64,000 bases of DNA from Candidatus Thorarchaeota archaeon (GCA_011364905.1 RDNZ01000002.1:102910-166909), one strand, 5' to 3'; shown: positions 10,872-36,318, numbered from the stretch's first letter. Notes: generated by a model from the sequence alone, not told the origin. Numbers and translations are program-made.

Positions 10872-10892
10872 GGCTTGGGTCCAAAAGTGCAA
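10872..10892 (-). promoter_or_regulatory. Shared 21-bp upstream motif, copy 1 (TTGCACTTTTGGACCCAAGCC)
   Basis: 18/21 identical to copy 2; 235 bp upstream of the 10637 start. Confidence 0.6.
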
Positions 10893-10987
10893 CAAAGACG
10901 TGCTCCTTTGGCTCAATTCTTCTTTGGATATGAATACAGGTTCGCAAACCTTCGATGTGTCTATAGGTAACCAAACGTCACTCTTCA

Positions 10988-11974
10988 TTACACAAAGCTT
11001 TCCAGTGTTGTCTGTGTGTTACCAAACATTTTCCATATATGCACCAGCTCACGGGTTTTGGCTTCTGCCCTATCCTTCCCCATTGCAGGTTGGAGAAGTC
11101 TGACAAGTCTCGGAGTTATGAGCGGCTTTAAGGTTAGGTCCACGCCCTTTGCACTCATAAATGAGGCTTCGTCAAAAACCTCTCTGGCCTCGATGTAGTC
11201 CTCTCTTTCAGACAGTTTCAGACCTCTTGCTTTCAGCAAATATCTCAGACCGCCATATCGTTTCAATTCAATTGCACCTTTCCGTGGTCCGAGACCCTTG
11301 ATGCCTTTCTTATGAAAGTCACATCCGCAAACTATTGCTAGGTCTCGAAGCAGTTCAAGATCAAGGTCCAAAACTCGCTCCAGCTCACTAAGGGTTGTGT
11401 ACTCCATGGTCCCCTTGGACAACTGAAGACTCTTGATGACGTGAGGACTGCCGAATAACAGGGCATCAGCGTCATTGGAAACCACAGAACCTACTAGACC
11501 CTCTCGACACAGGACTGCACCAAACATCTCTGCCTCGGATGGCGATGTAATTGCGGGTATCCCTGCTGCACGACAAAGGTCTTTGACGTGATTGACTGCG
11601 AAGTACATCCTAACAGCAGGACTCTCTCTTAGTGACTCTACAATCTTAATGTCGTGTGTGTCCTGCTTGATGAGAAACCGTTCATATAGCATGTGAGCTG
11701 TAGTTATGAGTTCAGGATTCGGTTTACGTTTCAGGGATTCAGGCGGTCCATCGAAAAATAGCGCTGGAAGAATATGGCGTTTAAGCGCTTGACGAATCAG
11801 TCCAAAGGTTATGTGAATATGTGCCATGGGTATCTTGTTCGATGAGATCGGTCGAATGGTGGACAACCTGCGCATCAAATAGTTGGGAGCATCGACTGCA
11901 ATTTTGGGAGTGAACAGCTCTGAAACATTGGCCCACTTCCATGGCACCAGGTTCTGCCAGTTTTTCACTCCCAT
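10988..11974 (-). CDS. FEN1/XPG-family 5' nuclease (FEN1 paralog) with C-terminal PIP box
   Basis: MGV start; IAVD, FFDG, SEAE, SNDADALLFG and GCDF acidic active-site motifs; H3TH GIKGLGPRKG; C-terminal QTTLESF. Confidence 0.9.
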   Translation of the reverse strand: MGVKNWQNLVPWKWANVSELFTPKIAVDAPNYLMRRLSTIRPISSNKIPMAHIHITFGLIRQALKRHILPALFFDGPPESLKRKPNPELITTAHMLYERFLIKQDTHDIKIVESLRESPAVRMYFAVNHVKDLCRAAGIPAITSPSEAEMFGAVLCREGLVGSVVSNDADALLFGSPHVIKSLQLSKGTMEYTTLSELERVLDLDLELLRDLAIVCGCDFHKKGIKGLGPRKGAIELKRYGGLRYLLKARGLKLSEREDYIEAREVFDEASFMSAKGVDLTLKPLITPRLVRLLQPAMGKDRAEAKTRELVHIWKMFGNTQTTLESFV

Positions 11975-11979
11975 TCCAA

Positions 11980-12699
11980 TCAACCCGTTCCTTTGAGAGT
12001 CCTCGCTCCCTTGAGTCCCAGCCGCACCACCACTGGATCTGGTAGTGGATGAACAGGACTTCGTTCCACTTGTACTCTGAGACCATCAGCTGCCATATTC
12101 ATGCTTGCTATATGGACTGTTGTGTCCACGCCATGAGCAATCACATTCCCGCCAACTGGCTTCAGAGCGCCAGTGTCCCAGTCCCTGCTTGAGTGATCAG
12201 TCAAGGCAACATGAAGATCATTGTCATTCACTAGTATACGAAGAATCTCCAATGTGTGCTGAAGCGCACGCTGCCTACCCTTAGATCCGATTCTACCACT
12301 CAGGTTAAGGATGCCTGTGAGACTATCCACTGCGACTACTCGAACGTCCCTCATGCAGCCTATCCCCTGTGCTAGTTCCTGCAGGTCCGAAAGCTCAAGC
12401 ACCTGTCCCACTATCACATTTCTCAGCAGCTCAGCTTCCTTTCCAAGCAAGGCACGGGTGAGAGGTGAGCTAAAGTTATTCCCAGAATCGATGAATACAC
12501 TCCGTCCTCCATTGAGAACACCACCAACAACAATTGCATGAGCTACAGTGGTCAGAGGTTTTCTCTCTGAGCTATGTATCAGACTGATTTGGTTTGGTAG
12601 TATCACTTGTCCCAGAGTCTCATCCAATGGTCGTGGTCGTAACCGAACCAGTGATTCCTCATGAACTGGTATGTTATCAAGCGGTAGACTCTCCGGCAA
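11980..12699 (-). CDS. RadB/Rad51-paralog-like RecA-fold protein with degenerate Walker A
   Basis: LDETLG, SVFIDSGNNF, VVAVDSL and PVGGNVIAHG motifs; the P-loop is replaced by HSSERKPLT. Confidence 0.8.
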   Translation of the reverse strand: MPESLPLDNIPVHEESLVRLRPRPLDETLGQVILPNQISLIHSSERKPLTTVAHAIVVGGVLNGGRSVFIDSGNNFSSPLTRALLGKEAELLRNVIVGQVLELSDLQELAQGIGCMRDVRVVAVDSLTGILNLSGRIGSKGRQRALQHTLEILRILVNDNDLHVALTDHSSRDWDTGALKPVGGNVIAHGVDTTVHIASMNMAADGLRVQVERSPVHPLPDPVVVRLGLKGARTLKGTG

Positions 12700-13666
12700 C
12701 CTCTACACCTCCCATCGATAATTGCGCAATATCACGACCAAGTAGAACGTGAGCCTCTCGACCATGTGGTAGCTGTTCGAGGTCGAATCCCGGTGCGGTA
12801 TCACTTTTGATGACTACTCGTAACCCCGTTCTGTTTGGAAACACGGTGATACGATTAGGCCACATCTCAATAAGTTTCTTCACGGTGCTTTCCTCAACAG
12901 CCACCTTATACTCATTCAATGTCATGCCTATATCATCCTCCATTAGTGGAAGACTGAGTATCGCATTGGTCATGAAAAGTGAGAGAACCTGCAAGCTTTC
13001 AGCTCCCTTCTCAGCTAGTGCTTGCTGGACTTGTTTCAAGACCTTCTCTTCTCCTTCAGTTCGTACAATCAAGATGTCGCATTCTTCGTATCTTGTGATT
13101 GACACCGGAAGGAGTGGTCGTTCACGAAGAAGATCTAGGACTACTGCCCTCATACTATTCGGAAGGATTATTGCCTTCATGTTGAGCTTGTCAATGGACG
13201 TCCAAAATCTGCTATGTGAAACTGAACTCCGTCCTAGTATTGGAATCGAATGTCCAAAGGACGCCATTGGCTCCAGAAGGGCAGAAAATCGCTCCGTGAT
13301 GCTACCAGGCTCTTTTATTCTGCTACAACCGATAATAGTTCCACCCATTGCGAGAAAAGCAGCAATCAATCCAAATGGTAATACAACAAAGAGCATCACG
13401 ACTCCTGTATAGACGATGCAAGCCCATGAAACCACATTGAGTAAAAGGGACAGTGGTTCCTTGGTTTCCCTGCGGGCGATAAAGAGCATAATGATGGTTC
13501 CTCCCCAAACAATGACAAGAGGCTGAATATTTCCTAGCCGCCATGCTAGGACCACAGAAGCAACAGAACTCAGTAGCTGCCCACCCAGAAAAAGAGCAAC
13601 CGCTCCCGCCAGAGCATATACCATTAAGCGGAAAATTGACTTTCCGAACATTCGCTTCTCCTCCAT
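12677..13666 (-). CDS. Membrane protein (about 4 N-terminal TM segments plus a soluble domain)
   Basis: Hydrophobic N-terminal 115 aa; overlaps both neighbours. Confidence 0.75.
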   Translation of the reverse strand: MEEKRMFGKSIFRLMVYALAGAVALFLGGQLLSSVASVVLAWRLGNIQPLVIVWGGTIIMLFIARRETKEPLSLLLNVVSWACIVYTGVVMLFVVLPFGLIAAFLAMGGTIIGCSRIKEPGSITERFSALLEPMASFGHSIPILGRSSVSHSRFWTSIDKLNMKAIILPNSMRAVVLDLLRERPLLPVSITRYEECDILIVRTEGEEKVLKQVQQALAEKGAESLQVLSLFMTNAILSLPLMEDDIGMTLNEYKVAVEESTVKKLIEMWPNRITVFPNRTGLRVVIKSDTAPGFDLEQLPHGREAHVLLGRDIAQLSMGGVEVAGESTA

Positions 13667-14280
13667 TCTTGAGTTGGTACTGATAGTCGGACAACTCCTT
13701 TGATATCGATCATCATTCTTGCCAATGGGTTCCCATCAATCAACAATCTGGAGTCCCTCTCCAGGCTTCTCACTACCCGAATGTCCACTGGTTTCCAAAT
13801 CAGAATTGATTCGTGCATCACTGGTGTAACTCGTTCTTCCAGACTGCGAACTTCACTCACAAGGACAACCTTTACTCCTCGCTCCGTTAGAGCAACCAAT
13901 GATGGTAGAGCATTCTCGATCAAATCCCGACCCCACATTATCTCTTCGCGTCGAGTCATGTCAAGCACCCGTGTTATGGGGTCTACTACAATTAACGATG
14001 TGTCATCTGGAAGCATCTCACAGACTGAGAGTATGCCCTCTTGTACCTCTTTATGTCCATTGAAAATGTTCACAGTGATTTTGCTGCTGTTTTTTGTATT
14101 GGATTTCAAAGCTCTCACAAAGGAGCGTTTTCCATCAGCACAGATCCATCTCACAATACCGTCTCTTGCAGCTTCTGCAGCAAGGGAGCAGGCTAGTAGG
14201 GTCTTCCCAGATCCAGCCTCACCCCAGATATGGAAAAGGTCGCCCATCCTCAACAAAACTTTAGCCCCCAGTACTACCAC
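13624..14280 (-). CDS. RadB/Rad51-paralog-like RecA-family ATPase
   Basis: Walker A GEAGSGKT, Walker B LIVVD, VVLVSEVR; lacks the RadA N-terminal domain. Confidence 0.85.
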   Translation of the reverse strand: MVVLGAKVLLRMGDLFHIWGEAGSGKTLLACSLAAEAARDGIVRWICADGKRSFVRALKSNTKNSSKITVNIFNGHKEVQEGILSVCEMLPDDTSLIVVDPITRVLDMTRREEIMWGRDLIENALPSLVALTERGVKVVLVSEVRSLEERVTPVMHESILIWKPVDIRVVRSLERDSRLLIDGNPLARMMIDIKGVVRLSVPTQEWRRSECSESQFSA

Positions 14281-15943
14281 GCTCCTTCTTTCGGGTGGGA
14301 AAGTGAGTCCGTGATGATGAGCTTGTCACACTGTGACGCTGGAGTTTGCTTCGTTTAACAACCTGCTCACTGGTCTCATCCTCTGCAGCAAGGAGAACTT
14401 GGACCGACTCCGCTGGTTCTTCATCGACTGTCTTGGCAACGACCATAGGTGGGTCTGCAAACTCCTTTCTCGTCCGATCTGGTTCTTTTATGACCCTATC
14501 ATTTGCTCCAGGGACTTCCTCTGTGTTTCCCATCACCTGCAAAAAACTGTCGAGTTCATCTTCACTCTCTGCACTAGCCGGAGCCATTTCCTCTCTTACA
14601 GGAGGTTCCTCCGGTTCAGCAAGATCCTTGTCAATCTCCATGACAATCTTTTTACTGGCATGAAGGTTGAGGATATCATCAATCCTGTTTTTCACTTCGG
14701 GACTCAGAGCACCAACATCAAAGAGAGCGTTGTTAAGAACTCCAAGGTGTCCGATAATCTCATGTTCCTTCAAAGGTGTGCTGCTATGTCCGGTAAGGCC
14801 AACATACGCTAGACCGAGAGCTTCTTCCTCACCCTCCCCGAATTCTAACCCGATGTTCTTGAATAAGCTCAAGAATTTTTCAAGACCAGGATCACCAGAG
14901 AGATTAGGCATTTCGACAGTGCTAGTAGGAGTAAGCCTTACGCATTCATCTAATATTGTAAACAGGGAGCCCACTGATTTGTTGAAATCGCCAGTTTCTA
15001 TAGATTCGGCAGCACTATCCATCAGCGGGGTCACTATGAAGTTTAGTGTGCCAACGAGTTCAAGTCGGTTAGCATTCTCCATTATTGAAGATGTGACCCG
15101 GTTAGAATCTCCAACCTCAGACAAAGCAGAAACCTCTTCATTTAGAGCACTACGAAAGCTGCCTATTGCAGTGTTTGCTCCCTGGAGCATCCATGAACCA
15201 AGCAGAAATGATATGCAGAAAACGACAAGCGGGAAGATTAGTGTTCCATTATTCAATAACGCGCCTGCAATGCCGAACCCAGCCATCACCCCCATGACAA
15301 TACAGAGTATACCGAGCCAAGACCTCCTCAGACCTGTTTCTAAATCATCCCACTTAGTGGAGCTCACATTCTTCTGAACATCATGCAAGTGAGATCGAGA
15401 GTCACTACTTAGCAGGAGTCCAAGTTCATTATCAGGTAAGATACGGGATGAATCAGTAAGCCACGATAAGTCTCTACGAGAGCTGCCCTCCTTGTATACA
15501 GCGTAGATAGTACGAGTTTCATGAATTAGGGATGATGATTTCGAATCAATGGACCTCATAACAGAGAACTCCACTCGCCCAAATGACGATAGGAGAGACC
15601 TCGCCTCGAACGCGTCCAGTAGTCCTACATCTTTGAGGATGCTCTTCAAGGACCCATTGACACTTTCGAGTATTGCGGCTTGCATAGCCAGAGTGGAGCG
15701 ACCAAACCTGGCCTTCTTCAGGTCAAGTACATAAGCAACATCTACATAGACGCCCCTGGTTCCTGGAATGCCAACCAGTCGCACTCCCAAGACCAACCCA
15801 TTGGGATATTCTGCTGTTCTATGACCCGCTCCTTCTAGCACTCGAACAACGTCCGTGGTGGCCCGCTCCAAACTTGTGCCAATGGACGACTCACTCTCTT
15901 CTTCCTCAGTGATTTTTTCATCATCAACTGCTGTCATTAACAT
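14261..15943 (-). CDS. 560-aa protein with two central TM helices and an acidic, disordered C-tail
   Basis: TM pair at about aa 209-255; coupled within the operon. Confidence 0.75.
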   Translation of the reverse strand: MLMTAVDDEKITEEEESESSIGTSLERATTDVVRVLEGAGHRTAEYPNGLVLGVRLVGIPGTRGVYVDVAYVLDLKKARFGRSTLAMQAAILESVNGSLKSILKDVGLLDAFEARSLLSSFGRVEFSVMRSIDSKSSSLIHETRTIYAVYKEGSSRRDLSWLTDSSRILPDNELGLLLSSDSRSHLHDVQKNVSSTKWDDLETGLRRSWLGILCIVMGVMAGFGIAGALLNNGTLIFPLVVFCISFLLGSWMLQGANTAIGSFRSALNEEVSALSEVGDSNRVTSSIMENANRLELVGTLNFIVTPLMDSAAESIETGDFNKSVGSLFTILDECVRLTPTSTVEMPNLSGDPGLEKFLSLFKNIGLEFGEGEEEALGLAYVGLTGHSSTPLKEHEIIGHLGVLNNALFDVGALSPEVKNRIDDILNLHASKKIVMEIDKDLAEPEEPPVREEMAPASAESEDELDSFLQVMGNTEEVPGANDRVIKEPDRTRKEFADPPMVVAKTVDEEPAESVQVLLAAEDETSEQVVKRSKLQRHSVTSSSSRTHFPTRKKERGSTGG

Positions 15944-18104
15944 TCCTCCCTAATCGCTCTTCTATTCCCCCAAGGAGCCCACTGCTCAGTTCCACGAGTC
16001 TTGAGAGACCCCCTAATCCTGCAAGCACAACAATGCTGGCTAGCAACCATCGTGACCTCTCCAGTAGACTATATGCATCCCCCACTGGAATACCAACGTT
16101 CTCTGAAATGTCTCTTATGGACATAGAAGTGGTAGCGGCGGCACCAATCAGGTTTTCAAACGACTCATCAAGCTCGGAAACAGACTCCATCGACACAAGA
16201 TGCCTTACGAGAGAGAGAAGCGAAACAGCATCCTCTGTGAATGGCATCATGGCCATTAGCTCTCGTATCGTCCTCATGCGGAGATACAGCCTATTCACTG
16301 TCCTTCCGAGTCTTGTGATCTTGAAAGCGCCTTCCTTGCTTCCCTCAATGAGCCCCAATCGTGATAATGCACCTGTGGGACTAGACTCTTCCATGGCGAT
16401 GGGCACGATGTAGTTCGCTAGAGGTCGTATCTTTTCATTGCGTGATGCCTTGAGTCCGAGAGAAACCAGATGCATACAAAGGATACCAGTTTCATCCAAT
16501 GGATTACCACATGAACAACTTGCACCTTCTACAGTGCCACTGGTCTGGAGTCGGGTGGAGAACCGACAGGTGAAGCTCCCACCTTGAAAACCTGAAACTA
16601 TTCCTCCGAGGACATCCTCGCTGGTTTCCCTGATGCTGACGGAGCCTAGTGCGTCTTTTCTTGCAGCCTGAACTGTGTCAGGCAGGGCATGTTTCTCAAT
16701 AACCGATTCCGCTGAGATCTCTCCGAGATGTAGGGGCCTCATGGGACTTCTAACATCTCTCACCGCGCAGAACACGAGATAAGACTCGCTCATTATGTCC
16801 TCCATCTGTTTCACTGTGCTCTCATTCATGGTGTCAAGAAGGACAAGAATTTGCTCGGTAAGCGATGCCGCTGAACCGAGCCTACTCCTCACTCTTTCAT
16901 ATCGAGGAATCAGGGTTTCACCAACCTCATCAAAGTATCTGCGCTTCACAAGCTCGCACTCACCTCTACTACTAGTGAGGATGACACCAAAGCCCATAAC
17001 ATCATGTCCAGGTCTCCCCGCACGTCCAAGCATTTGATGGACTGTGTTAGCAGAGAGCATCTCTCTATGATCCTCCGGCGAACGACAACTGGTGAGCACA
17101 ACGGTACGAGCTGGGAGATCCATTCCTGCAGCTAGGGTAGATGTTGCACAGATTACACGTAACATGCCTTTTCTGAACAAGCGCTCCACCAAAGCTCTGA
17201 CACTCGAGCTGAGTCCAGCATGGTGGAATCCTACGCCATTATGCAAGACTTTCCGTAGGGGCGCCGGAACTGTCATGAAGGATGTTTCTACAGAGTTAAT
17301 TTCATCGTCCAGGGCTTTTCGCTCAATGGAACCAAGTTGCCTAATCACATTTTCAGACAATCGTTCAGCCTCAAGTTCAGCAAACCTTCGGGTTCTGTGA
17401 AAGGTGATGACTTGACCGTTTGCCTGCACTACCGTCATCACTGTTTTTTGGACTGCTCGGGCCTTATCGGGTGTGTGGACTACCTTACAGACAAGCGGAA
17501 CAGGACGCTCATCAGATGCAACAAGTCCGCAACCAAGCCATTCCGCTAGTTCATCTGGGTCCTTAACTGTGGCTGAGAGTGCTACTATCTGCAGGTCGTC
17601 AATGCTTCGTTTCAAACGAAGGATAGTGCTTTCTAGTCTTGCTCCTCGTGTCGAGTCCGAAAGGTTTTGGACCTCATCTATGACCACTGTTCCGACCTCT
17701 GGAAGCCACTCCACCTGGTGTCTCAACAGAGAGTCTGCTCGTTCATAGGTGGTCACAATGATGTCGTATTCTGCCATATCCTCTCCTGAAAGATGCAGGT
17801 CACCGGTAGTCACTCCAATTCTGATGGCATTTTCTTGGTACCGCTCTCTCAGAACTCGTGTTATCTGATATGCCAGAGCTCTTAGGGGTACCAAAAACAA
17901 GCCTCTTCGACCATTGAAAATCGATCTAAGCAGGCCCATCTCCCCCACCAATGTTTTTCCCGATCCTGTTGGAGCACTCACCAATATACTGGCCCCATCA
18001 AGAAGACCCTTGTCAATTGCCTCAGTCTGAACACCCCTTGGTGTGACACCAACTTGCTCTAGCATCCGAGTGACACTTGCAGGGATATCAGTGACAGACA
18101 TCAT
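15924..18104 (-). CDS. hel308: Hel308/Ski2-like SF2 DNA helicase with an inserted SWIM zinc finger
   Basis: APTGSGKT, PLRALA, DEVQ, LSAT, FHHAGL, TSTLAAGMDLPA and QMLGRAGR; SWIM motif CSC-x10-CMH. Confidence 0.9.
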   Translation of the reverse strand: MMSVTDIPASVTRMLEQVGVTPRGVQTEAIDKGLLDGASILVSAPTGSGKTLVGEMGLLRSIFNGRRGLFLVPLRALAYQITRVLRERYQENAIRIGVTTGDLHLSGEDMAEYDIIVTTYERADSLLRHQVEWLPEVGTVVIDEVQNLSDSTRGARLESTILRLKRSIDDLQIVALSATVKDPDELAEWLGCGLVASDERPVPLVCKVVHTPDKARAVQKTVMTVVQANGQVITFHRTRRFAELEAERLSENVIRQLGSIERKALDDEINSVETSFMTVPAPLRKVLHNGVGFHHAGLSSSVRALVERLFRKGMLRVICATSTLAAGMDLPARTVVLTSCRSPEDHREMLSANTVHQMLGRAGRPGHDVMGFGVILTSSRGECELVKRRYFDEVGETLIPRYERVRSRLGSAASLTEQILVLLDTMNESTVKQMEDIMSESYLVFCAVRDVRSPMRPLHLGEISAESVIEKHALPDTVQAARKDALGSVSIRETSEDVLGGIVSGFQGGSFTCRFSTRLQTSGTVEGASCSCGNPLDETGILCMHLVSLGLKASRNEKIRPLANYIVPIAMEESSPTGALSRLGLIEGSKEGAFKITRLGRTVNRLYLRMRTIRELMAMMPFTEDAVSLLSLVRHLVSMESVSELDESFENLIGAAATTSMSIRDISENVGIPVGDAYSLLERSRWLLASIVVLAGLGGLSRLVELSSGLLGGIEERLGRNVNDSS

Positions 18105-20452
18105 ACCTCGGACCCAACCTCCTCTGATTGACGCAGAGCCATGCTACCCTTCATGGTTATCCGATAATTCTTGTAGGAAACTCCTGCATGGGACTCGCTA
18201 CCACGAAGAATCAGACTCGCATTCTCCAACCGTGCAAGAATAGCCTCGATGTCAACCTCCGTATGGCCCTTTGCGTTGAGAAAACGTCTGACAGACTCCT
18301 CAGTGAGAGGCTCGTAGCGGGTAAGGAGCTTAAGAATCTCTTTCACAGATGCTCTGTCTCGTCCTCCAACCACAGCAAGTAGTGTTTTTGGTTTCCCTGC
18401 TTCGGGCCCGTCATCCGTTTTAGTTAGACTAGGCCTCGGAAGCATGTCAACTCCCTCATTGGATAGTGTTCTAAGCCCTGGTTCAGGTGCAATCTTGAAT
18501 GGCATACAAGTCTTTGCCTGTTCGTGCGACATGAGAGCATAGCCTCGCTCCATTACTCTCAGGAACGAACCTTCTCGCGATGATTGACGCGCCTTGCTAT
18601 GAATTCCTGTCCCAACAACATCTAATGACAAGAGGTCAGATACATAAGCAATATCAGCGGACTCCCGCAACCTTAGAGCGATACATGAACCAAAGGCGTC
18701 CGCCGCATCCCACATTAAGGCTGATGGGTTGTTTACACTGAGTATAAGAGGTCCTCTCTTGAGGAGCCTCCGAACGATTCTCTCAGCCATTACCCCCCGT
18801 TTGGTATACCTGAAAGTGCTTTTATTTGTGACAAGATGTTCAGGCATATCAATGACAGTGACCAAATCAGATTCTTTTGCAAGTCCTGACAATTTGAGGC
18901 TCATAAGATCCAGTGCAAACATATCGAGATCAAGAGCTCCAATCGCGAGGTTCACAACTACAAGCTCATGAGAGGCGATCCTACTAAGAGAAATCGTCTG
19001 AGTACCATAGAATGCTTTTGCTCCTGACCCCTGATAGAGCCTCTTGATGGCATCGAGCGCAAGTGCTGAAGACTTGGATAATCTAACATTCTGTGGAGGG
19101 ACTGCACCCTCCTGAAGGGATTCATGCTCAGGATCAATAACTACATCGGCGAGTGTTCCATTCCCGAGAGCAACCACTCTGCTCAATGCAACCTCAAAGT
19201 CAGCGGCTGGGCTGAGATTAGTCCCAGCAAGAGTTTCCAATAGCAGTAGCAACTCCGAAACATACTGTGTTCTGGGAATTCCCTCAGAGTCCACAGGATT
19301 CAGTACAAAGTCCTTCCCGAGACTAACGGCGAGACCGCTGGAGCTGACACCAGCCAGACTTTGGCAATCATCGTTTATTGTGAGCACTAGAACCTTCTTT
19401 CCCTTGGCTAAAATCTGGTCAATAAGAACACTGAGAACTTGCTTTCGATCCCGCCAATCTCCTCCGCATAATAAGAGACCACGTTCAAGGTCAGAATGCA
19501 TCAACCCCACTGAGGGACCTGTCTTTAGGGTTTCGGGATTCACAACAACGCCCAGAGGGTAGTCATCAGACCTGCTTCTTATTGGCGCAATGAACTCCCC
19601 CGGAACGTTACTTCCCACCTCAGGACCTAGTTCGCTTGGCAGTTGTACTAGCCACTCTGCCAACTCCTTTCCTGTGGCAAAGAAAGTGGGCGAACTGCTA
19701 CAGAGGTCCCACTCTTCAAGTCTTTGGCCAAGGTCTTTCTCCTTCAACCTCCTAAAGCCGCTGTCAGGAACACTCCCTTTCACTTGCCCCTCAACTAGTC
19801 GGACGTCAGATTCCGTATGAGAATGTCCAACAAAATACAGCTGTGAACGCCAGAGCCCCCCCCGTGCATGAAAGTAGGTCTTCCTCTGTGATGAGGAAAT
19901 ATGATTGAGATATCTCTCGATTATGGAAGTGACAACACCATCTCTTGCAACCTGTTTTGAGTCAGATGGAAACAGATCTGCAACCATCAAGAAACCATGT
20001 GAACTGTCTAGACCTCGAAGAAGTTTGCTTAGATTTCCTTGTAGGATTGGCCGAGCTTTCTTCATGTTGAGTGCAATGAGATGGCTTTCCTTTCCAAGAC
20101 CCCTACAATGTAGCGATTTTTTCTCTTCACTGTAACTCACATCTGGGTCGGGTACCCTATACCAACTAGTATCATCGAGCGACCGAGTTTCAAGGTAGTT
20201 TTGAATCAAGGGCAGAACAAGCATCAGCATTAGGATTATTCCAGTAATGAATATCGTGACATAAGGCAGCTGAATCACTGTAATCATAATAACCAATGAG
20301 AGTCCAAGAGCATAATCCCATGGAAGCTTGACTGACCTGTCATCCCATCGTATCTCTGTGTCTGTCGTTATGGTCATGCCAGACGCCTCAAGCTGGTCCA
20401 TAGGATCCTGCGCAGGCTCTGAGCCCATGATGTTCCCTCGTTTCTTAGTCAA
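18101..20452 (-). CDS. Membrane-anchored HerA/VirB4-like P-loop protein, catalytically degenerate, with C-terminal winged helix
   Basis: N-terminal TM pair. DLERGLLLCGGDWRDRKQ sits at the Walker A position, followed by KVLVL, FVLNP, VIDMPEH (Walker B position), GPLILSVNNPS and IALRL. C-terminal LARLENASLI...YRITMKG. Confidence 0.7.
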   Translation of the reverse strand: MTKKRGNIMGSEPAQDPMDQLEASGMTITTDTEIRWDDRSVKLPWDYALGLSLVIMITVIQLPYVTIFITGIILMLMLVLPLIQNYLETRSLDDTSWYRVPDPDVSYSEEKKSLHCRGLGKESHLIALNMKKARPILQGNLSKLLRGLDSSHGFLMVADLFPSDSKQVARDGVVTSIIERYLNHISSSQRKTYFHARGGLWRSQLYFVGHSHTESDVRLVEGQVKGSVPDSGFRRLKEKDLGQRLEEWDLCSSSPTFFATGKELAEWLVQLPSELGPEVGSNVPGEFIAPIRSRSDDYPLGVVVNPETLKTGPSVGLMHSDLERGLLLCGGDWRDRKQVLSVLIDQILAKGKKVLVLTINDDCQSLAGVSSSGLAVSLGKDFVLNPVDSEGIPRTQYVSELLLLLETLAGTNLSPAADFEVALSRVVALGNGTLADVVIDPEHESLQEGAVPPQNVRLSKSSALALDAIKRLYQGSGAKAFYGTQTISLSRIASHELVVVNLAIGALDLDMFALDLMSLKLSGLAKESDLVTVIDMPEHLVTNKSTFRYTKRGVMAERIVRRLLKRGPLILSVNNPSALMWDAADAFGSCIALRLRESADIAYVSDLLSLDVVGTGIHSKARQSSREGSFLRVMERGYALMSHEQAKTCMPFKIAPEPGLRTLSNEGVDMLPRPSLTKTDDGPEAGKPKTLLAVVGGRDRASVKEILKLLTRYEPLTEESVRRFLNAKGHTEVDIEAILARLENASLILRGSESHAGVSYKNYRITMKGSMALRQSEEVGSEV

Positions 20453-20722
20453 CTAGGTCCTTCCCCCTTGTCTTGCCAAGACTTTCAACATCATCTTAAT
20501 GCGAATCAGCATTTTCTGATCTGAAGAGTTCACCACTAGTGAATCGTTCATAATGACCAGCTCAGGATGCTCATGCTTCGAAGGATGCCCGAGTACCATT
20601 AGAACTGGCTCCTTGGATACAGTTGTCCAAGTGTATCCATGGCCCCGTTTCAGGAAGTCCATCACCGCGTCAGCCTCCACACCTGATGGAATGTTTAGTG
20701 ATACATCCTCACCCACTGACAA
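20453..20722 (-). CDS. Small hypothetical protein (89 aa)
   Basis: Translationally coupled on both sides. Confidence 0.7.
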   Translation of the reverse strand: MSVGEDVSLNIPSGVEADAVMDFLKRGHGYTWTTVSKEPVLMVLGHPSKHEHPELVIMNDSLVVNSSDQKMLIRIKMMLKVLARQGGRT

Positions 20723-21302
20723 CGCCTCCTGTGTTCACCAGTTGCATCTCGTAGAGTCCTGCACGCTCCACAGGTGTATGAGGATAGGATGAACGCATGG
20801 CACTCTCTAACGTTGTCACATCATCAAACACCTTCTCAGCCAACATCCTGATTATGCGTGCCCCATTCCAAAATCGGAGAGACCGTCTGACAACCTGCAT
20901 ACCAACCAGCGTTGAGTTGTCATCCAAAGGGCGACACACGAAGAACCGAACCTCACATTGACTCTCTTTCTTGAACTGCTCACTCATAGCTCTCAGTACC
21001 TGTTTGGCTGCGTGCGAAACATCAATCCCCAAGGGTACGCTAGCCAGTAAGCAACCTGCTTGAACCTCTACAGTCCAATTGCGACGAATGGCCATGGTGC
21101 CGGTTGCCTCATCCCAGAATACAACGACGGGTCGTTTCCATAAAACGAAGAGAGCGATTACTAGAGACGCTAAACCAATCCCAACCAAGGTCTCGAAAGC
21201 AAATCTTCCTTTGGGGTCCATGATGATTCTAGTTGACCATGCCGCCAGAACAGCAGCTGGAACAGTCCATTTCACCCACTCATAATCCTGGTAATTCCTC
21301 AT
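20709..21302 (-). CDS. Membrane protein with 2 N-terminal TM segments
   Basis: Two hydrophobic segments followed by an alpha/beta domain; GGAGG RBS. Confidence 0.75.
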   Translation of the reverse strand: MRNYQDYEWVKWTVPAAVLAAWSTRIIMDPKGRFAFETLVGIGLASLVIALFVLWKRPVVVFWDEATGTMAIRRNWTVEVQAGCLLASVPLGIDVSHAAKQVLRAMSEQFKKESQCEVRFFVCRPLDDNSTLVGMQVVRRSLRFWNGARIIRMLAEKVFDDVTTLESAMRSSYPHTPVERAGLYEMQLVNTGGVVSG

Positions 21303-21305
21303 TCA

Positions 21306-23243
21306 TCACACCCTCCTCACAAACATCCCGATGGCGTCTCGCAGCTCATCCTCTCCTCTGTATGGCCAGAGATCTGCGGCTGTGTCCTCTCCGAATACGT
21401 CAATGTGTTTCAAGAACCGCTTGTCTAATAGCACAACTATGCCTTGATCCTCCGGTGACCTCCTGAGTCTTCCTGCCATTTGTGCAACTTTTCGTATTGA
21501 TGGTACAACCACAGCATAATAGTACCCTGAGCCAGCTCCGTATCTTCGATCATAGAAGTCCTGCAACGCTTTTTGATGACTTGTCGGAGGACTGAATGGT
21601 ATCCCCACACCAATAATGAGGTCCACCATGCTAGACCCCGCCTCCACCAAGTCTACTCCTTCGCTCACCTTTCCACCATAAACACAGAACAAGGCATGGG
21701 GCTGCGAGGCGAGAGCTTCCTTCACATCATCAATTCTACTGCGTCTATCCTCAATAAGACGCTCTCGAAATCCTGCGTTTACTCCAAAACTCAAGACATC
21801 TCGCATGATTGCATAGCTCGGGAAAGCAATCATGGCGCTCTTGTTGGCGGGAACTGCCTCGAGTACGGTTTCGATCCTCTCACTCAAAGTACGCCAAAGG
21901 TCAGGTCCTCTGGACTTGTAGCTTGTTGATACTTCTCTGTCCACTAGAATGAGCCTTGTTCCTCGTGGATAGGGACTGGAAAGTTCCTCACCTTTTGCAC
22001 TACCAATTCCAAGTATTCGTTTGTAGTGAGAGAGTGGTCTCAGAGTTCCAGACATAAGGAGCGAGGAGCGTGCCATCCTGAGTATCGGAGCAATTAGTCC
22101 AGCAGCATTCAGTGGACGAATCTTCAGGATAACGCGCATGATGTCTTGGTGCTCCTCCCAGCCGGTTGACTTCTCAATGGTGACCAACCAGTCATCACTC
22201 TCGGTAGCTTTTCTTCCAGCATAGAGGAAAGACACTAGTCGATCCACTGGTGTGTCAACAGGGACAGTCTCATCCGCACCTTCAAGCAGAGTACTATACT
22301 CGATGAGCTGTTCCAAATCGCCTTGTGCAGCAAAACGCGGATAAGCGTCCCACTTGTCAAGACATCGTTCGTCCTTCAATGTGTCGAGATTCACCGAAAC
22401 GGTCTCCCAAAGAAAATCGACTGTTTCCTCCAACCAACGCACACCAGTTTCTTTGACGATGTCGCGCTTGTGCTCTCTGAGCCATAGCAAGTCAGCCCCA
22501 CGCAGCTCCGCAGCCTCAGCCTCTAGAACATGAGATGAGAGGTTATGAGCCTCATCCACAAGGATGTCAATCTCGTACAAGCCAATTCCTAGCGATGAAA
22601 GAAGGGCCATTTGGACACGGCTTCTAAACAGGTAGTCATAGGGACCAACAATGACTCTACTTTTCTTAGCGCACCATCTAAGCACCTCGTAGGGACACAT
22701 ACCATTGTCACGGCCAACATCCTCAGCTACCGACTGACTCACGACATTGTCTTTGAGGAGCTCATCTATAGTTTCTAGGAATGCCTGACGAGGTTGATGT
22801 CGTCCATCAGCATTTCTTCTGTAGCAATTCCAATAATAGGTGCAGTTGCCCGTTTTGACAAGGGCTGCGCACTCACGCATGAAACCCAACGAAGAAATAT
22901 GCCTCATCTGACCCTTCATGGGACACACGTGTTTCCTAGAAACCATGCTGGTAGCTGTAAGCAGTGTATCCTGGGTGTAGATGCGTAATTGTGTGAGTTC
23001 TTCCTCGAACACCTTTGATTGCGAGTGAGTTCGGGTAAGCACGAGTAATCGTGACTCAGGATCATTCACACGTGCAGCCAAGTAACCGGACAGAGCCGCA
23101 ATGGTCTTTCCGATTCCGCAGTCGGCAGAGAGTAGACCCACCGTTCCCTCAGAGAATACTTCCTCTGCATATCGTAATGCGCGTTCTTGGTGCGGTCGTG
23201 GCTCATAGGGGAACCAGTCCATTGGGTCAGGTAGAGTTGCCAT
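21306..23243 (-). CDS. xpd: XPD/Rad3/DinG-family Fe-S DNA helicase
   Basis: Q motif PYEPRPHQ, CGIGKT, four Fe-S Cys (VCP...EC...NC...MCPY), DEAH, SGTL, SEGVD and QMAGRLRR. Confidence 0.93.
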   Translation of the reverse strand: MATLPDPMDWFPYEPRPHQERALRYAEEVFSEGTVGLLSADCGIGKTIAALSGYLAARVNDPESRLLVLTRTHSQSKVFEEELTQLRIYTQDTLLTATSMVSRKHVCPMKGQMRHISSLGFMRECAALVKTGNCTYYWNCYRRNADGRHQPRQAFLETIDELLKDNVVSQSVAEDVGRDNGMCPYEVLRWCAKKSRVIVGPYDYLFRSRVQMALLSSLGIGLYEIDILVDEAHNLSSHVLEAEAAELRGADLLWLREHKRDIVKETGVRWLEETVDFLWETVSVNLDTLKDERCLDKWDAYPRFAAQGDLEQLIEYSTLLEGADETVPVDTPVDRLVSFLYAGRKATESDDWLVTIEKSTGWEEHQDIMRVILKIRPLNAAGLIAPILRMARSSLLMSGTLRPLSHYKRILGIGSAKGEELSSPYPRGTRLILVDREVSTSYKSRGPDLWRTLSERIETVLEAVPANKSAMIAFPSYAIMRDVLSFGVNAGFRERLIEDRRSRIDDVKEALASQPHALFCVYGGKVSEGVDLVEAGSSMVDLIIGVGIPFSPPTSHQKALQDFYDRRYGAGSGYYYAVVVPSIRKVAQMAGRLRRSPEDQGIVVLLDKRFLKHIDVFGEDTAADLWPYRGEDELRDAIGMFVRRV

Positions 23244-23245
23244 CC

Positions 23246-23833: not shown

Positions 23834-24273
23834 CAGTATTCGTCCCCCACTGCTTTCAGAATCCCATCCATGTTCACAATTAAGTCCTCGTCCTCCAGCT
23901 GGTCTAAGAACCTAACAGCCTTGTCGATTTCGATGCCTGCTTCCTCGCACTCTTGAAGGACCCTATCACGACTCACTCCTGTTCCACGATTCAAGTCACT
24001 GAGGTCAGACACTATATTCAGCACGCGCTTCTTGACACCAAGACCATGTCTCGACTTGGACCTATGCGTAGTTGGTTTCCTCCAGACAATCCTCTGTATC
24101 TCTAGAAGAGCTCCCTCAACTGAATCGACATACTTCCAATCAGGACTAGGCTCGATTCTTCTGGAACAGAGATTGCACTTTGATTCCTCATCCTCACTGT
24201 ACACAGTAGCGTATCCGGTATAGCCGCAATGAGGACACATGAAGATTCTGTACATCTGTTCCTTTGAGGTCAC
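23833..24273 (-). CDS. Zn-ribbon plus C-terminal winged-helix protein
   Basis: CPHC...CNLC; the C-terminal VSRDRVLQECEEAGIEIDKAVRFLDQLEDEDLI resembles an MCM C-terminal-type WH domain. Confidence 0.75.
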   Translation of the reverse strand: MTSKEQMYRIFMCPHCGYTGYATVYSEDEESKCNLCSRRIEPSPDWKYVDSVEGALLEIQRIVWRKPTTHRSKSRHGLGVKKRVLNIVSDLSDLNRGTGVSRDRVLQECEEAGIEIDKAVRFLDQLEDEDLIVNMDGILKAVGDEY

Positions 24274-25340: not shown

Positions 25341-25777
25341 CTGCCAATCATCTCCTCGATTGGCCCCCTCAAAGGCACGAGTTTCTTGAAGGAGTCAAGC
25401 TCCCTACGAGGAATCAAGACTTCCTTTCCATTTCGATAGAGGTCCATTCCTGGAAACAGCGAAACCACAGCTTGCTGTCGTATTGGCGGTAATGAGAAGC
25501 TAAGTCCTTGAGAAGTCATTTCTCCCACGACACTTACATAACCCCCTAAGGTCTCATACAATGACCCGTCTTTGGGAGTCGTCCCAGGTTCAGCTGGTGG
25601 GACCTCCAGCATGAATTTGAAGAGGTCCTCTAGTGACTCGAAGAAATCCCTCCAGTCGGGTCTTGCTTCTCGATGAAATACCTCGTTGATTCCCGCCTTA
25701 GCTCCAGCGATCCAAGCTGGATCAGGTAGTTCATCTATACTATTTGTACTACTTTGCAGATATTCCTGAATGTACAT
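25337..25777 (-). CDS. Hypothetical protein (family X; clear paralog at 37253)
   Basis: GAGGTGA RBS; overlaps the radA start; shares AEPGT.PK and TLGGYVSV.GE with 37253..37720. Confidence 0.85.
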   Translation of the reverse strand: MYIQEYLQSSTNSIDELPDPAWIAGAKAGINEVFHREARPDWRDFFESLEDLFKFMLEVPPAEPGTTPKDGSLYETLGGYVSVVGEMTSQGLSFSLPPIRQQAVVSLFPGMDLYRNGKEVLIPRRELDSFKKLVPLRGPIEEMIGS

Positions 25778-25781
25778 CGCA

Positions 25782-26077: not shown

Positions 26078-26098
26078 GCCTTAGGTCCAAAAATGCAA
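26078..26098 (-). promoter_or_regulatory. Shared 21-bp upstream motif, copy 2 (TTGCATTTTTGGACCTAAGGC)
   Basis: Upstream of the recombination operon; 180 bp from the leader ORF ATG. Confidence 0.6.
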
Positions 26099-26339: not shown

Positions 26340-26360
26340 TTGCATTTTTCGACCAAAAGC
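26340..26360 (+). promoter_or_regulatory. Shared 21-bp upstream motif, copy 3 (TTGCATTTTTCGACCAAAAGC)
   Basis: 18/21 identical to copy 2, on the opposite strand; 215 bp upstream of the GH3 gene. Confidence 0.6.
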
Positions 26361-26574: not shown

Positions 26575-28122
26575 ATGTCAATCATAAGCAGGCTTGTTCC
26601 TTTGCTGGCTAAGAGGAAAGCAAGACTGATTCAAGAAATAATGGATAATCCCATCGAGCTGACTGAAGCTAAGCTGCATTCGATTCTCGAGCGCCACGCA
26701 CAGACAGCTTATGGGAAGGCCAACAACTTTGGAGGAATTCGAACACCAGAGCATTTTGCCGAGGGAGTTCCACTCTCTGATTATGTATCCATGAAACCTT
26801 ATTGGAATCGAATATACGAGAACCCGCAACTTCCAATCATTACAGCTGATCCAGTGATATGGTATGTGCAGAGCAGTGGCTCTACCGGGAAACCAAAGGC
26901 CCTACCCATAAGCAAGGCAGGATTGAAAGACTATACAGCTGGAAGCATGTTGTTCCTGATGTCATTCATCAATGCCAAGGAGGGTAACAACAAAGTCTTC
27001 GATGGAACCATGCTCACCTTCGCGGCACCAGCACGGATAGGTGAGATCAACGGAGTACCCCTTGGATACATGACAGGCATCTCTCGTGAGATGATTGCGA
27101 ACGCTCTGCTCAAGAGAATCGTGAAGCCTGGAGTTGAGATCTTTAACATGACAGAGATGTGTGAGAAGCTCTGGAGCTATGCCAAGTATGCGGTCACAGA
27201 GAACATAACCTCTCTCGGGGGAATTACCACACTTGTGTTTGCATTCATCAGGAGAATGCAGCATGAGTACGGACCTAGTCTCCTAGATGAGTTCCGAGGG
27301 ACCAAGTATGAGGCTCGTATCAGGGAAGCCTTAGGCGATGATGGCACTTTGGACCTGAATGTCCTTTGGCCCAATCTCATCATGGTGGGAGCCACCGGCG
27401 TTGATGCCGACCCGTACAAGCCATGGCTGAAAAGGACGCTTCCAAACGCGACGCTCTGGGACAATTTCGCAGGATCTGAGGGACTATATGGCACAACCCT
27501 GTTGAAACACACTGACAATGGCATTCAGTTATTGCCAAACATCAACTACTTCGAATTCATTCCTGAGTCGCAGATAGATAAGGAAAACCCAACTATCATT
27601 CCGCTATCGGAGGTGAAGAAGAACCATAGGTATGAGCTCATCCTCACCAATATGATGGGGTATACTAGATATAGGATTGGAGACATGGTGACCTTCATCG
27701 ACACCGATCCCTACTCAGTCCATCGCATAGGACGTAAAGGCAAGTCTGTCAACCTTACGGGCGAGAAGCTGTCCGATGCGCATGTCACGGAAGGTGTTGC
27801 TTATGCAACAAAACAAACCGGTGCTGAAATTCTGGACTACACCGTCTATGGCAGTATTGAGTCAGGGCAGGCAAACTACGTGATAGCTGCCATGTTCAAT
27901 AATGAGGTAGATTCGATTGAGTTTGCTCGAGCATTTGACGAATGTGTTGGTAGAAACAATGGAGAATTCAAGTATGTCCAGGAGTTTGGTTCACTAGGAC
28001 CCACTATTGTTAGGAGAATGGAGAAATCATATACAGAGAGTCTGATTGAACACAGTCATATCCAAGCGAAGTCGAGACCCTTAGCAACAGAGGAGGAAGG
28101 AGTTGCTAGCGGAAGTTTCTAG
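26575..28122 (+). CDS. GH3-family acyl-acid amido synthetase (adenylate-forming)
   Basis: VPLSDY, SSGSTGKPK, FAGSEG, YFEFIP, YELILT, YRIGD and GEKL motifs. Confidence 0.9.
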   Translation: MSIISRLVPLLAKRKARLIQEIMDNPIELTEAKLHSILERHAQTAYGKANNFGGIRTPEHFAEGVPLSDYVSMKPYWNRIYENPQLPIITADPVIWYVQSSGSTGKPKALPISKAGLKDYTAGSMLFLMSFINAKEGNNKVFDGTMLTFAAPARIGEINGVPLGYMTGISREMIANALLKRIVKPGVEIFNMTEMCEKLWSYAKYAVTENITSLGGITTLVFAFIRRMQHEYGPSLLDEFRGTKYEARIREALGDDGTLDLNVLWPNLIMVGATGVDADPYKPWLKRTLPNATLWDNFAGSEGLYGTTLLKHTDNGIQLLPNINYFEFIPESQIDKENPTIIPLSEVKKNHRYELILTNMMGYTRYRIGDMVTFIDTDPYSVHRIGRKGKSVNLTGEKLSDAHVTEGVAYATKQTGAEILDYTVYGSIESGQANYVIAAMFNNEVDSIEFARAFDECVGRNNGEFKYVQEFGSLGPTIVRRMEKSYTESLIEHSHIQAKSRPLATEEEGVASGSF

Positions 28123-28133
28123 GAGGTAGCAAA

Positions 28134-28538
28134 ATGGAAACGAGCTCAAAGGACAGACTACGACAAATGGCTGGAGTCCTACTCATCATTTCCGCGATCA
28201 CTCACACCCTTCAGGTCTTTGTTTATGGAGGTGTAAGTGGAAATGTAGCTGCAGCTCTTTATGGCGTGATGTATCTGGTTCTTGGAGCTAGCGTCATCAA
28301 ATATCCGGAGAGGAATCTGTTACTTCTCATGTGTATCATCATACCAGGAATAGGAGGGACCGGAGGAGTCATCAGGTTCCTGTTCATGCATACACATGAG
28401 GCGAACTACTTCATTGTTCTGCATGTGATAATAGACATGGTGGTTGTCCCAACATGTGTATACCTCTACAAAGACCGAGATGCAAGTCAACCAAATTCCA
28501 TGAAGGTGGAAGAAGAATTGGTTGCTACGGTTCAATAA
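28134..28538 (+). CDS. Small 4-TM membrane protein
   Basis: GGAGGT RBS; four hydrophobic segments; directly follows the GH3 gene. Confidence 0.8.
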   Translation: METSSKDRLRQMAGVLLIISAITHTLQVFVYGGVSGNVAAALYGVMYLVLGASVIKYPERNLLLLMCIIIPGIGGTGGVIRFLFMHTHEANYFIVLHVIIDMVVVPTCVYLYKDRDASQPNSMKVEEELVATVQ

Positions 28539-31104: not shown

Positions 31105-31113
31105 GTTTAACCC

Positions 31114-31147: not shown

Positions 31148-31284
31148 AAAGAGTAGCACTTGTCATAGTGCGAAACAAGAAAACGACAACAGTGGTTGAA
31201 CCTGAGTAAGTTCAACCTAGATTTAGTGGCGGAAGATTAACATAGCTCGGACATGATTAGAAATTGATTTACAGAAAAAGGGGC

Positions 31285-32790: not shown

Positions 32791-32862
32791 TTTCAATTAA
32801 CAAAGAATCAGCGAAAGACAGTTTTCTCTGCCTGACGCCCATTCACGGTACGTCCAAAGGTC

Positions 32863-33615: not shown

Positions 33616-33753
33616 CTTTCTCCTATGGGAGTAACTCCAAATTTCTTAGAAAACTAGCATCCTAATATGTGTGACGAAACTCAACAAGAGAACTTATGTA
33701 GGGATAGAGTGGCTTGATTACTATCCAGCTAGTATGGGCAGGAGAAGTGGGAT

Positions 33754-34936: not shown

Positions 34937-34971
34937 ACCGAATATGCTCAGAATAACAATTGAGTTAAGGA

Positions 34972-35679
34972 ATGATAATGATGCAAACAGGTACAGAGTT
35001 AGTAATCCTCTCTAGTCTAGCGACAATTGCATTATCAGGGACAATAGGGGTATACCTGCTACGTCTTTGGTGGGGTCAACCAACTAGATTGATGACAGAC
35101 CTTCCGTTGGTATTTGCAATAACCACTATGGCGCAAGCAGTGCAAATATCCATTGGACAGGCGCCCAACTATGGGCTGATCGAACAGTCGATGGGACTTT
35201 TCAGATTGCGTGCAATCGTTATCTGTTTCTCCATTGTCCCCATATTCGGTGCGTTACTGCAAATATGGGCGCCAAGAATTCAGAAACATCACAACCGACT
35301 AGTTTTCTTGGTATTGGCCATTTGGGTGGCTACTGTTCTTCTTGGACCAACAGAGGAATTCATTATGATAATGGTCATCCCTTGGATTCTAGTGTTTGGA
35401 ATTTTAATGCTAATCACCTTTGTAATCACGTGGAAAACTAGTAGATTGAATGAAGTACGAAGTGATCTCATGATTGTTTCGATCATTTTCGGAATGGCGA
35501 GTCAAGCGCTTCGAGTGCCACTTTTGGGATCTGGTTTATTCTATGTTCCAGATGTGCTCTTCATGCTGTCCATGCTGTTCATAGCCATCGCCTTCAGTAA
35601 TCCCTGGTATAGGAGAGAGAATAGGGGAATACAAGAACCAAGCTCGCAGACTGAGATTGCAATGGCGTTGGACTATTAG
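34972..35679 (+). CDS. Stand-alone 7-TM membrane protein
   Basis: Seven hydrophobic segments and no soluble output domain. Confidence 0.75.
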   Translation: MIMMQTGTELVILSSLATIALSGTIGVYLLRLWWGQPTRLMTDLPLVFAITTMAQAVQISIGQAPNYGLIEQSMGLFRLRAIVICFSIVPIFGALLQIWAPRIQKHHNRLVFLVLAIWVATVLLGPTEEFIMIMVIPWILVFGILMLITFVITWKTSRLNEVRSDLMIVSIIFGMASQALRVPLLGSGLFYVPDVLFMLSMLFIAIAFSNPWYRRENRGIQEPSSQTEIAMALDY

Positions 35680-35789
35680 AAGAAATGAAATGGCAAAAAC
35701 CTCTAACCTAATTCTTTGAAGAAAGAACGGCGTCATCCCAAAACGGTTTTCAAATCCTTGAGAGAACAAAGTAGAGCGCGGTGCAAGTT

Positions 35790-36113
35790 TCAGTATGTCC
35801 TGATTGATGTGGTAAGAACGATACTCTCGGAGTCCTGCTTTGTACTGGCAAGATCATAGGCTACTATGACAAACTCAATGATTGAAACGATAATGACCAC
35901 TAATGACAGAATCAGCATAACCTGCATATGAGCAGTGAAGGCACCACCATAAAGGATTGGATCTAATGTATTGATAGCAACTGCTAGTGAAATGACGCAC
36001 ATGAAAAGAGCGAAGACTCTGACCCTCAGTGTGTCTTTGCCACTTTGCCAAATCAGAAGAGAGTCCACGACTCCAAGCGATAGTGGAACTAAGACTATCA
36101 TTGCTCTCTTCAC
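35790..36113 (-). CDS. Small 3-TM membrane protein
   Basis: Three hydrophobic segments; start uncertain. Confidence 0.55.
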   Translation of the reverse strand: MKRAMIVLVPLSLGVVDSLLIWQSGKDTLRVRVFALFMCVISLAVAINTLDPILYGGAFTAHMQVMLILSLVVIIVSIIEFVIVAYDLASTKQDSESIVLTTSIRTY

Positions 36114-36297
36114 TGCTGCAATAGACTATCTGAACTCCAGCCACAAGAAAGTATGACAAAGCTCGGAGAGTATTAACAGCCCTTATACCCTTGGCAGTTG
36201 CGCTTCGCTCATTCTCCCCTTCACACACGTTCGTTCATAAAAGCATGGGAGTTTCAGGATATATATCTAGAGTTTTACATGGAACGAGTCGGTTTCA

Positions 36298-36318
36298 TTG
36301 CAGGAATGGAACTAAGGC
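36298..36318 (+). promoter_or_regulatory. Shared 21-bp upstream motif, copy 4 (TTGCAGGAATGGAACTAAGGC)
   Basis: 16/21 identical to copy 2 (the match extends to AAGGCAT); 182 bp upstream of 36500. Confidence 0.5.

Follow-up and report, generated by a model that had tools for sequence, protein, structure and literature searches.

In a window of 64,000 nucleotides from Candidatus Thorarchaeota archaeon (the whole stretch of DNA analyzed here, C25:102910-166909 of the G000 assembly, which comprises 3.08 Mb in 95 contigs with 44.9% G+C), four gene sets are preceded by copies of a short asymmetric DNA motif, here called Box 1. Box 1 is probably the recognition site of a dedicated regulator and would form the upstream edge of a control module of ~92 bp, by which the units behind it are switched together. 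The gene sets encode a recombination machinery, a giant surface protein, an adenylating enzyme of the GH3 family and two proteins, X and Y; a single regulator shared by all four is the most likely explanation of their upstream sequences. The motif is oriented with the genes at several units, is rare elsewhere in the genome and is conserved while the flanking non-coding DNA diverges, as would be expected of an upstream regulator site.

A preliminary description had introduced the motif as a 21-bp sequence heading four transcription units. The four 21-mers were found at 10872-10892 (-), 26078-26098 (-), 26340-26360 (+) and 36298-36318 (+), each on the strand of the downstream gene, and 12 of the 21 positions were invariant, as had been claimed. 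The intergenic placement was borne out as well. None of the sites lies within a credible gene, site s3 overlapping solely a mechanical open reading frame (ORF) of 74 codons without a Pfam match. The cores of the four sites are located as follows:

10878..10892, minus strand: Box 1 core s1 (TTGCACTTTTGGACC), 255 nt upstream of the gene for a 199-aa membrane protein (p199); module to ~10798
26084..26098, minus strand: Box 1 core s2 (TTGCATTTTTGGACC), 321 nt upstream of the 146-aa head of the recombination operon; module to ~26004
26340..26354, plus strand: Box 1 core s3 (TTGCATTTTTCGACC), 235 nt upstream of GH3; module to ~26434
36298..36312, plus strand: Box 1 core s4 (TTGCAGGAATGGAAC), 202 nt upstream of X; module to ~36392

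The distances to the start codons given previously hold if they are counted from the last base of the 21-mer. They amount to 235 nt for s1 (GTG of the 199-aa gene at 10637), 215 nt for s3 (ATG of GH3 at 26575) and 182 nt for s4 (ATG of X at 36500), while s2 is followed by a 17-codon leader ORF after 180 nt and by the 146-aa operon head at 25777 after 301 nt. Within the operon leader (25778-26000, minus strand), the blocks TCTCGGAArTTTGAAkATTATT and AGGTGArTAyGAwTGTyATyGA are kept in the related species G005 and G037; as the ATG of the leader ORF is lost in G005, the conservation of these blocks is probably non-coding. DNA contigs of a marine-sediment run fuse position 26138 to 26312, which reveals a related population without the 173 bp (26139-26311) between s2 and s3; contig pieces of this run still cover both box regions. 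The same run fuses 31192 to 33665, and two TPR genes (31193-33664) are missing there.

The pattern of the 12 invariant positions had no further match in the whole 3.08-Mb assembly. Its enrichment within the window (four found, 0.02 expected) is a circular measure, since the pattern was read off the same four sites. A search of the window allowing two mismatches gave eight matches against 6.7 expected from shuffles, i.e., no excess, so that the signal resides in the four sites and not in a diffuse family. Furthermore, a 16-nt scoring matrix was built from 17 sites of other species only, G000 being left out. In this matrix scan, which had been proposed as a check, the four sites took ranks 3, 9, 13 and 19 among 6.16 million positions of G000; most of the other top matches sit in long ORFs, e.g., in a GTPase gene at C57:1731. 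Twenty-two positions reached 16 bits or more, and the four sites make up four of the six intergenic ones. A profile of the ~105-nt module identified just the four sites at E <= 2e-7 in the genome (E 3e-11 to 2e-7). The uniqueness of the pattern, the matrix and the profile lend the sites three lines of independent support. With a profile made from the relatives only, s2 (3e-5) and s1 (5e-5) were followed by a site on contig C47 (E 0.21), which is described below, and by s3 (E 2.2).

The best look-alike of Box 1 in the genome (C23:19938-19953, plus strand; locus L081) lies 157 nt upstream of a conserved gene for a 277-aa winged helix-turn-helix (wHTH) protein. This protein was considered as an autoregulated regulator and rejected, the box being present in none of 24 orthologous upstream regions; the look-alike is probably a chance match.

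To follow the sites beyond G000, homologous loci were taken from 27 other species of the genus. In the ancestral layout, GH3 and X diverge from an intergenic region of ~500-700 bp, and X is followed by Y and by the genes from RadA through FEN. X and Y are separated from the remaining operon in G000, G005 and G010, and a separate operon headed by a Y paralogue was seen in G000, G005 and G037. On the X side, boxes of the TTGCAGAAATGGACC type are located at approximately -202 from the X start in eight other species, and weaker forms (GTGCAGAAATGTAC, CTGCAA...) in seven more. On the GH3 side, boxes on the opposite strand were found ~230-300 nt upstream of GH3 in eight species, of which G038, G002, G005, G004, G010 and G013 possess the TTGCACTTTTCGACC type, and G016 and G039 a short-spacer or variant form. 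G016 contains two GH3 genes (L044, G016:C1; 12919-14430 and 17339-18856), which are 47% and 81% identical to GH3 of G000, and both are preceded, at a distance of a few hundred nt, by a short-spacer Box 1 of their own. Upstream of p199, the box resides at -262 in the three closest species (G037, G010 and G005), and GTGCACATTCGACC-like forms occupy the same alignment column in ~12 other species. The head of the split operon has orthologous boxes in G005 (TTGCAGTTTTGGACC, 306 nt upstream) and in G037 (one change). Thus, the box is kept at all four unit types with its distance and orientation, X of G036 excepted, and both the expected conservation upstream of orthologs and the link between the four transcription units, as previously proposed, were affirmed by the congeners.

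Box 1 also stands out against its surroundings. In the 330 nt upstream of X (nine species), the Box 1 window ranked first with a pairwise identity of 0.80 against a mean of 0.35. Upstream of p199 (330 nt, 15 species), it reached 0.76 against a mean of 0.45, the exact window ranking second, behind the one shifted a single base further on. The X and p199 modules (48 nt) resembled each other more within a genome (mean identity 0.48) than between genomes (0.42; permutation p ~5e-4), a difference driven by G031 (0.79) and G034 (0.88).

Across species, the conserved core proved to be shorter than the 21 bp of the preliminary description, whose motif is indeed present and asymmetric. It comprises just 15 bp, TTGCA-S-WWWW-S-GACC, that is TTGCA, one S, four W, one S and GAC(C), while positions 16-21 of the 21-mer are common to the four G000 copies and some X-type sites and are not part of most orthologous sites. 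In the center, A prevails at X-type sites and T at the remaining units, and the flanks hold the polarity. As the center flips strand and the flanks do not, a read-out at the DNA level would fit better than one at the RNA level. For the leader of X, RNAalifold gave no consensus pairs in 10 sequences and no conserved RNA fold was predicted; scans of the window with Rfam and for tRNAs yielded no matches, and a structured cis-regulatory RNA leader was thus not found. A short-spacer form of the core (TTGCACWTTTGACC) had 17 matches in 28 genomes, including both GH3 copies of G016, against two for the control.

Thirteen modules of the four unit types from G000, G005, G010 and G037 were compared without gaps, anchored on the box. 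They align from Box 1 through a CG(G/C) at +88 to +90, so that the box opens a module of ~92 bp whose geometry is fixed. Box 1 occupies +1 to +15 and is followed by an A-tract at +28 to +32, by A-rich positions at +61 to +71 within an A/T-rich, TATA-like stretch (~+58 to +72), and by the CG(G/C), possibly the transcription start. The box is the 5' boundary of conservation, sequences 5' of it failing to align.

The arrangement of the genes reaches beyond the genus. Other genera keep the order GH3, divergently X through FEN, and then p199 and the giant protein on the same strand as the operon. The X family was detected in 21 of 26 genomes of the family and in none of 124 genomes of other families in the phylum. 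Genomes that seemed to lack X proved to be fragmented, and some of them do hold the operon. Genus-specific words shared by the upstream regions at -190 to -250 were found in three of five genomes of other genera examined. These are ATAGGGTACAGAyTwTmACGG upstream of all three units in G074, TAAAAAAGCTAC upstream of all three units in G103 (genus g18), and GTGArATTTCAGCAAT upstream of X and p199 in G150, the reverse complement of which resembles Box 1. No clear shared upstream word was found in G139 and G083. Because the layout is the same while the words are specific to each genus and the copies of one genome are alike, the regulon would appear to be older than the letters of its switch, the copies changing together.

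The list of four units drawn up previously was sound as to the link between them and incomplete as to membership, a weaker fifth copy being located outside the window:

C47:8724-8828 (locus L145:2725-2829), plus strand: weakened Box 1 (AATGCACTTTTGAGCC), found with the relatives-only module profile

This site lies just after an aminotransferase gene and ~220 nt upstream of an acidic ORF of ~40 codons, which is followed by a 167-aa TPR gene. Nine relatives exhibit TTGCAC-N-TTTGACC at the aligned place, most of them with a preceding A. The site is a probable fifth member of the regulon, weakened in G000. A conserved inverted repeat, TGCAGTC-N7-GACTGCA, was observed just upstream of the start of the small ORF.

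We also attempted to place the core promoter relative to the box. A consensus of the TFB recognition element (BRE) and TATA box was derived from 23 tRNA upstream regions of G000; it reads CGnAAnnnTTTAAAA and begins ~42 nt ahead of the mature 5' end. A core promoter element would resemble this consensus and lie ~26 nt upstream of the start. Box 1 shows no such resemblance, and in no module did the matrix put its best or second-best match on Box 1. All BRE/TATA-like matches lie downstream of the box, at +38 (CATAATCCTTATTT type), +69 and +88 to +99. In G103, the three units share a clear BRE/TATA-like CGTTATTAAGATT block ~70 nt downstream of their shared word. Together, this block, the A-rich stretch of +61 to +71 and the CG(G/C) of +88 to +90 favor placing the TATA box at approximately +60 to +70 and the start at approximately +90, so that the box would be centered ~80 nt upstream of the start.

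The regulator would accordingly bind Box 1 upstream of the core promoter. The two short blocks, approximately one helical turn apart, would provide two major-groove contacts, and the A/T tract between them, which is tolerated on either strand, may be read through the minor groove or through DNA shape. The spacing of the blocks, the strand-free tract and the asymmetry together suggest an asymmetric binder with two contacts, such as a heterodimer or a two-domain protein. As the box is located upstream of every BRE/TATA-like candidate, we lean towards activation, which may proceed by recruitment of TBP and TFB. Since the module heads four units and the probable fifth, the RadA/XPD/Hel308/FEN operon, X-Y, GH3 with its membrane protein, and the unit of membrane protein and giant Ig-like surface protein would all be switched together.

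Several observations weigh against a dedicated regulator acting at Box 1. No regulator gene could be tied to the box. The AlphaFold model of X is of low confidence (predicted local distance difference test score, pLDDT, 62) and a Foldseek search of it in the PDB had no result at E <= 1e-3; neither X nor p195, which bear no similarity to each other, had a match in the ESM Atlas. The close relative G036 has no box upstream of X. The compared species are kin, so that their counts and the permutation p-value overstate independence. The 15-bp core alone amounts to ~20 bits and equally good chance matches occur in coding DNA; specificity must therefore come from the rest of the module. Within the modules the BRE/TATA matches score low, mostly 5-10 bits, and are spread over three positions, on which the distance of the box from the core promoter, and with it an activating or a repressing role, would depend. 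The RNA contigs mentioned below only hint at expression of the RadA-like gene.

It is conceivable, though less likely, that Box 1 is the operator of a repressor which silences the regulon until a signal arrives, in the manner of an SOS box. The same conservation data fit such a protein, and there is a second element at fixed spacing, the CG(G/C) at +88 to +90, with the word TTGCATCGGAC at ~+85 in s2. A repressor may act on Box 1 together with this tCGGrA element (+88 to +97), which is like the right half of Box 1, so that both would bracket the core promoter, whose position is ambiguous in view of the three weak BRE/TATA positions. However, Box 1 stands at the extreme 5' side of the conserved blocks and keeps a distance of at least 20 nt from all BRE/TATA-like candidates, which lie downstream of it, whereas repressors of archaea commonly bind across BRE/TATA or the start site.

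A regulator binding at some distance from the core promoter is also to be distinguished from a special core promoter, in which Box 1 would be an extended BRE read by one of the two neighboring transcription factors, TFBa or TFBb. The genome encodes five full-length TFB paralogues (29075-31104, plus strand, in the window; contigs C16 and C87), and the tandem pair of the window, whose members are 73% identical to each other, adjoins the locus in all seven loci of other species in which TFBs turned up (six from congeners, one from another genus). Box 1 also lacks symmetry and points in the direction of its gene. We nevertheless regard this explanation as improbable: Box 1 is unlike the BRE/TATA consensus of the genome, ~22 nt or more separate it from the nearest TATA-like tract, and TFBa (94-96% identical across the genus, far above its neighbors) and TFBb (87-91%) hardly vary between species with differing boxes. 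The surroundings of the TFBs belong to an extended syntenic block without specificity for the regulon. Moreover, the shared word of G150 resembles Box 1 on the opposite strand, which disfavors a core element of fixed polarity. A special role of the two adjacent TFBs is thus not supported, in view of the five paralogues, the genus-wide identity of TFBa and a neighborhood that is syntenic across genera anyway.

Still less credit can be given to the idea that the boxes are no transcription signals and serve the operon machinery as DNA targets, be it as start points of recombination or gene conversion or as binding sites of X. In its favor, the boxes flank junctions prone to rearrangement, X-Y having split off in G000, G005 and G010 and the related population lacking 173 bp between s2 and s3, and the promoter copies are homogenized within genomes. 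A DNA target would hardly account for the constant distance and orientation to the start codon in four or five non-homologous units throughout the genus, nor for the embedding of the box in a module with TATA-like tracts, and the Foldseek search with the pLDDT 62 model of X did not disclose an endonuclease fold in the PDB. Finally, the view that the four copies have no function and were left behind by a duplicated segment or a mobile promoter, or that they arose by chance, to which the circularity of the original enrichment statistic and the sharing of positions 16-21 by the four copies (absent in orthologues, as after a recent copying event) would lend themselves, can practically be dismissed, as it is already contradicted by the detection of the sites with a matrix excluding G000, by the retention of orthologous sites in at least 15 species despite diverged flanks, and by the location of the other chance matches in coding DNA or at unconserved places. 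A replication-origin reading, with the boxes as origin recognition boxes, is not favored either: the minimum of the cumulative GC skew at ~26 kb coincides with the switch of the gene strand, no Orc1/Cdc6 domain was found among the annotated neighbors, and two of the four boxes are solitary.

Candidates for the regulator inferred here are numerous, ~45 wHTH matches and ~12 RAM-domain matches being scattered over the genome. A 235-aa protein encoded at 59340-60047 (plus strand) contains tandem winged-helix domains (HTH_20 and MarR-like) and is 73% identical and syntenic in another genus. With its two domains, such a protein would be apt to bind an asymmetric site; nothing links the 235-aa protein to Box 1.

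The transcription units downstream of the four boxes are:

2927..10637, minus strand: unit P, genes for a 199-aa protein (~5 transmembrane segments), a 79-aa protein and a 2287-aa acidic protein
10988..25777, minus strand: unit O, 14-gene recombination operon with the 146-aa Y paralogue as head
26575..28538, plus strand: unit H, GH3-family adenylating enzyme and 134-aa membrane protein
36500..37720, plus strand: unit X-Y, two proteins of unassigned function without family matches

The 2287-aa protein of unit P harbors Ig-like (Big_1, Big_3_5) and prenyltransferase-like domains. Unit O begins with the Y paralogue and continues with a RadA-like protein, XPD, a degenerate HerA-like membrane protein, a Hel308-like helicase, two short RadA-family paralogues and a FEN1/XPG-like nuclease. 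In most congeners, X and Y are the first two genes of this operon. In a comparison with L044-L056, L119 and L120, the proteins of unit O (10988-25777) reached identities of just 40-60% with most congeners and of 58-80% with G005 and G037; X, Y, GH3 and the TFBs share 65-96% identity with the closer congeners. The head of unit O is a paralogue with ~40% identity to Y, and the operon is separate from X-Y. The low identity, the head gene and the split from X-Y point to a replaced or fast-evolving version of the operon in the subclade of G000.

An overlapping gene pair for an Mre11-like phosphoesterase and a short Rad50/SbcC-like ATPase is located at 43266-45685 (plus strand). In other genera, this pair directly adjoins the CAAX/p235/GH3 side of the locus; Box 1 was not seen upstream of the pair at 43266-45685.

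Mangrove metatranscriptome contigs were letter-identical to parts of the genes for the RadA-like protein (24671-24872), TFBa (29085-29482) and a CAAX protease (34135-34397). In this metatranscriptome, identical contigs covered these three genes only; they disclosed no start sites, and none lay on the four boxes. This faintly suggests in situ activity of the organism and of the three genes.

The combination of genes invites a further thought, which we hold to be doubtful at present, namely that a mating-like programme of DNA exchange, confined to a single family of the Thorarchaeota, has the module as its master switch. One regulator would then turn on cell contact by way of the giant Ig-like protein, a small-molecule step by GH3, and a membrane-linked machine of RadA, Hel308, XPD and FEN. 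The switch would co-evolve fast with its regulator, giving each genus and partly each species its own version and possibly a barrier between lineages.

Asgard archaea are the closest prokaryotic relatives of eukaryotes. We know of no cis-regulatory element or regulon that has been demonstrated experimentally in them, and a literature search on Thorarchaeota promoters found nothing relevant. Box 1 provides a short and concrete DNA probe with which its regulator may be fished out. It defines a putative co-expression set consisting of the recombination machine, the giant adhesin-like protein, the GH3 enzyme and a micro-ORF with a TPR gene. A family-specific recombination operon tied to surface genes is the pattern expected of a DNA-exchange or damage-response programme. 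Moreover, from one lineage to the next all copies of the box alter their letters in concert, which offers a natural case for the co-evolution of a regulator and its site.

Three archaeal systems are suited for comparison. In the bop regulon of Halobacterium, Bat binds an asymmetric box of ~16 bp at a fixed distance upstream of the TATA box at a handful of promoters. Box 1 is likewise asymmetric, of about the same length and common to few promoters of one gene cluster. The two differ in sequence, lineage and function, and Bat is known and encoded within its cluster.

The boxes of archaeal Lrp/AsnC proteins and the upstream sites of Ptr2 (PMC2715240) are similar to Box 1 in length (13-15 bp) and probably in their position upstream of the promoter. 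They share with it two arms, the first of 5-6 bp, around an A/T center that may take either orientation. In Box 1, the left arm and center (TTGCA-s-WWW) even equal a half-site of the Ss-LrpB box, TTGCAA[AAT/ATT]TTGCAA, which follows the general Lrp/AsnC (feast/famine regulatory protein, FFRP) form abcdeWWWe'd'c'b'a' (PMC2715240). Unlike these boxes, Box 1 is not palindromic: its right arm, sGACC, fails to complement TTGCA (two of six letters fit), so that length, A/T center and left arm agree while dyad symmetry is missing. Moreover, the regulon includes no Lrp/AsnC gene, the two RAM-domain ORFs of the window being located near 53.2-54.7 kb.

The DNA damage-responsive element (DDRE) of the Sulfolobales is an ANTTTC hexamer within the 20-bp consensus AATAGTTTCRGWDTACTCWS, which is bound by Orc1-2 at 23-55 nt upstream of the ATG; its regulon joins the ups pili, the ced DNA import system and tfb3 (PMC6061795). 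In sequence, the two elements are unrelated. By inspection, the centers of the Box 1 sites (CTTTTG, CTTTTC, TTTTTG, TTTTTC, GAAAT and GGAAT) do not contain the ANTTTC hexamer. Unlike the DDRE, Box 1 is found at 202-321 nt from the start codons, the two regulons comprise unrelated genes, and no Ups pili or Ced genes were identified among the Box 1 units. Nevertheless, the Orc1-2/DDRE regulon (PMC6061795) is the closest functional analogue: like the DDRE, which is bound by a dedicated activator and unites genes for cell-surface contact with genes for DNA transfer or recombination, Box 1 would be a short promoter element that ties surface genes to recombination genes.

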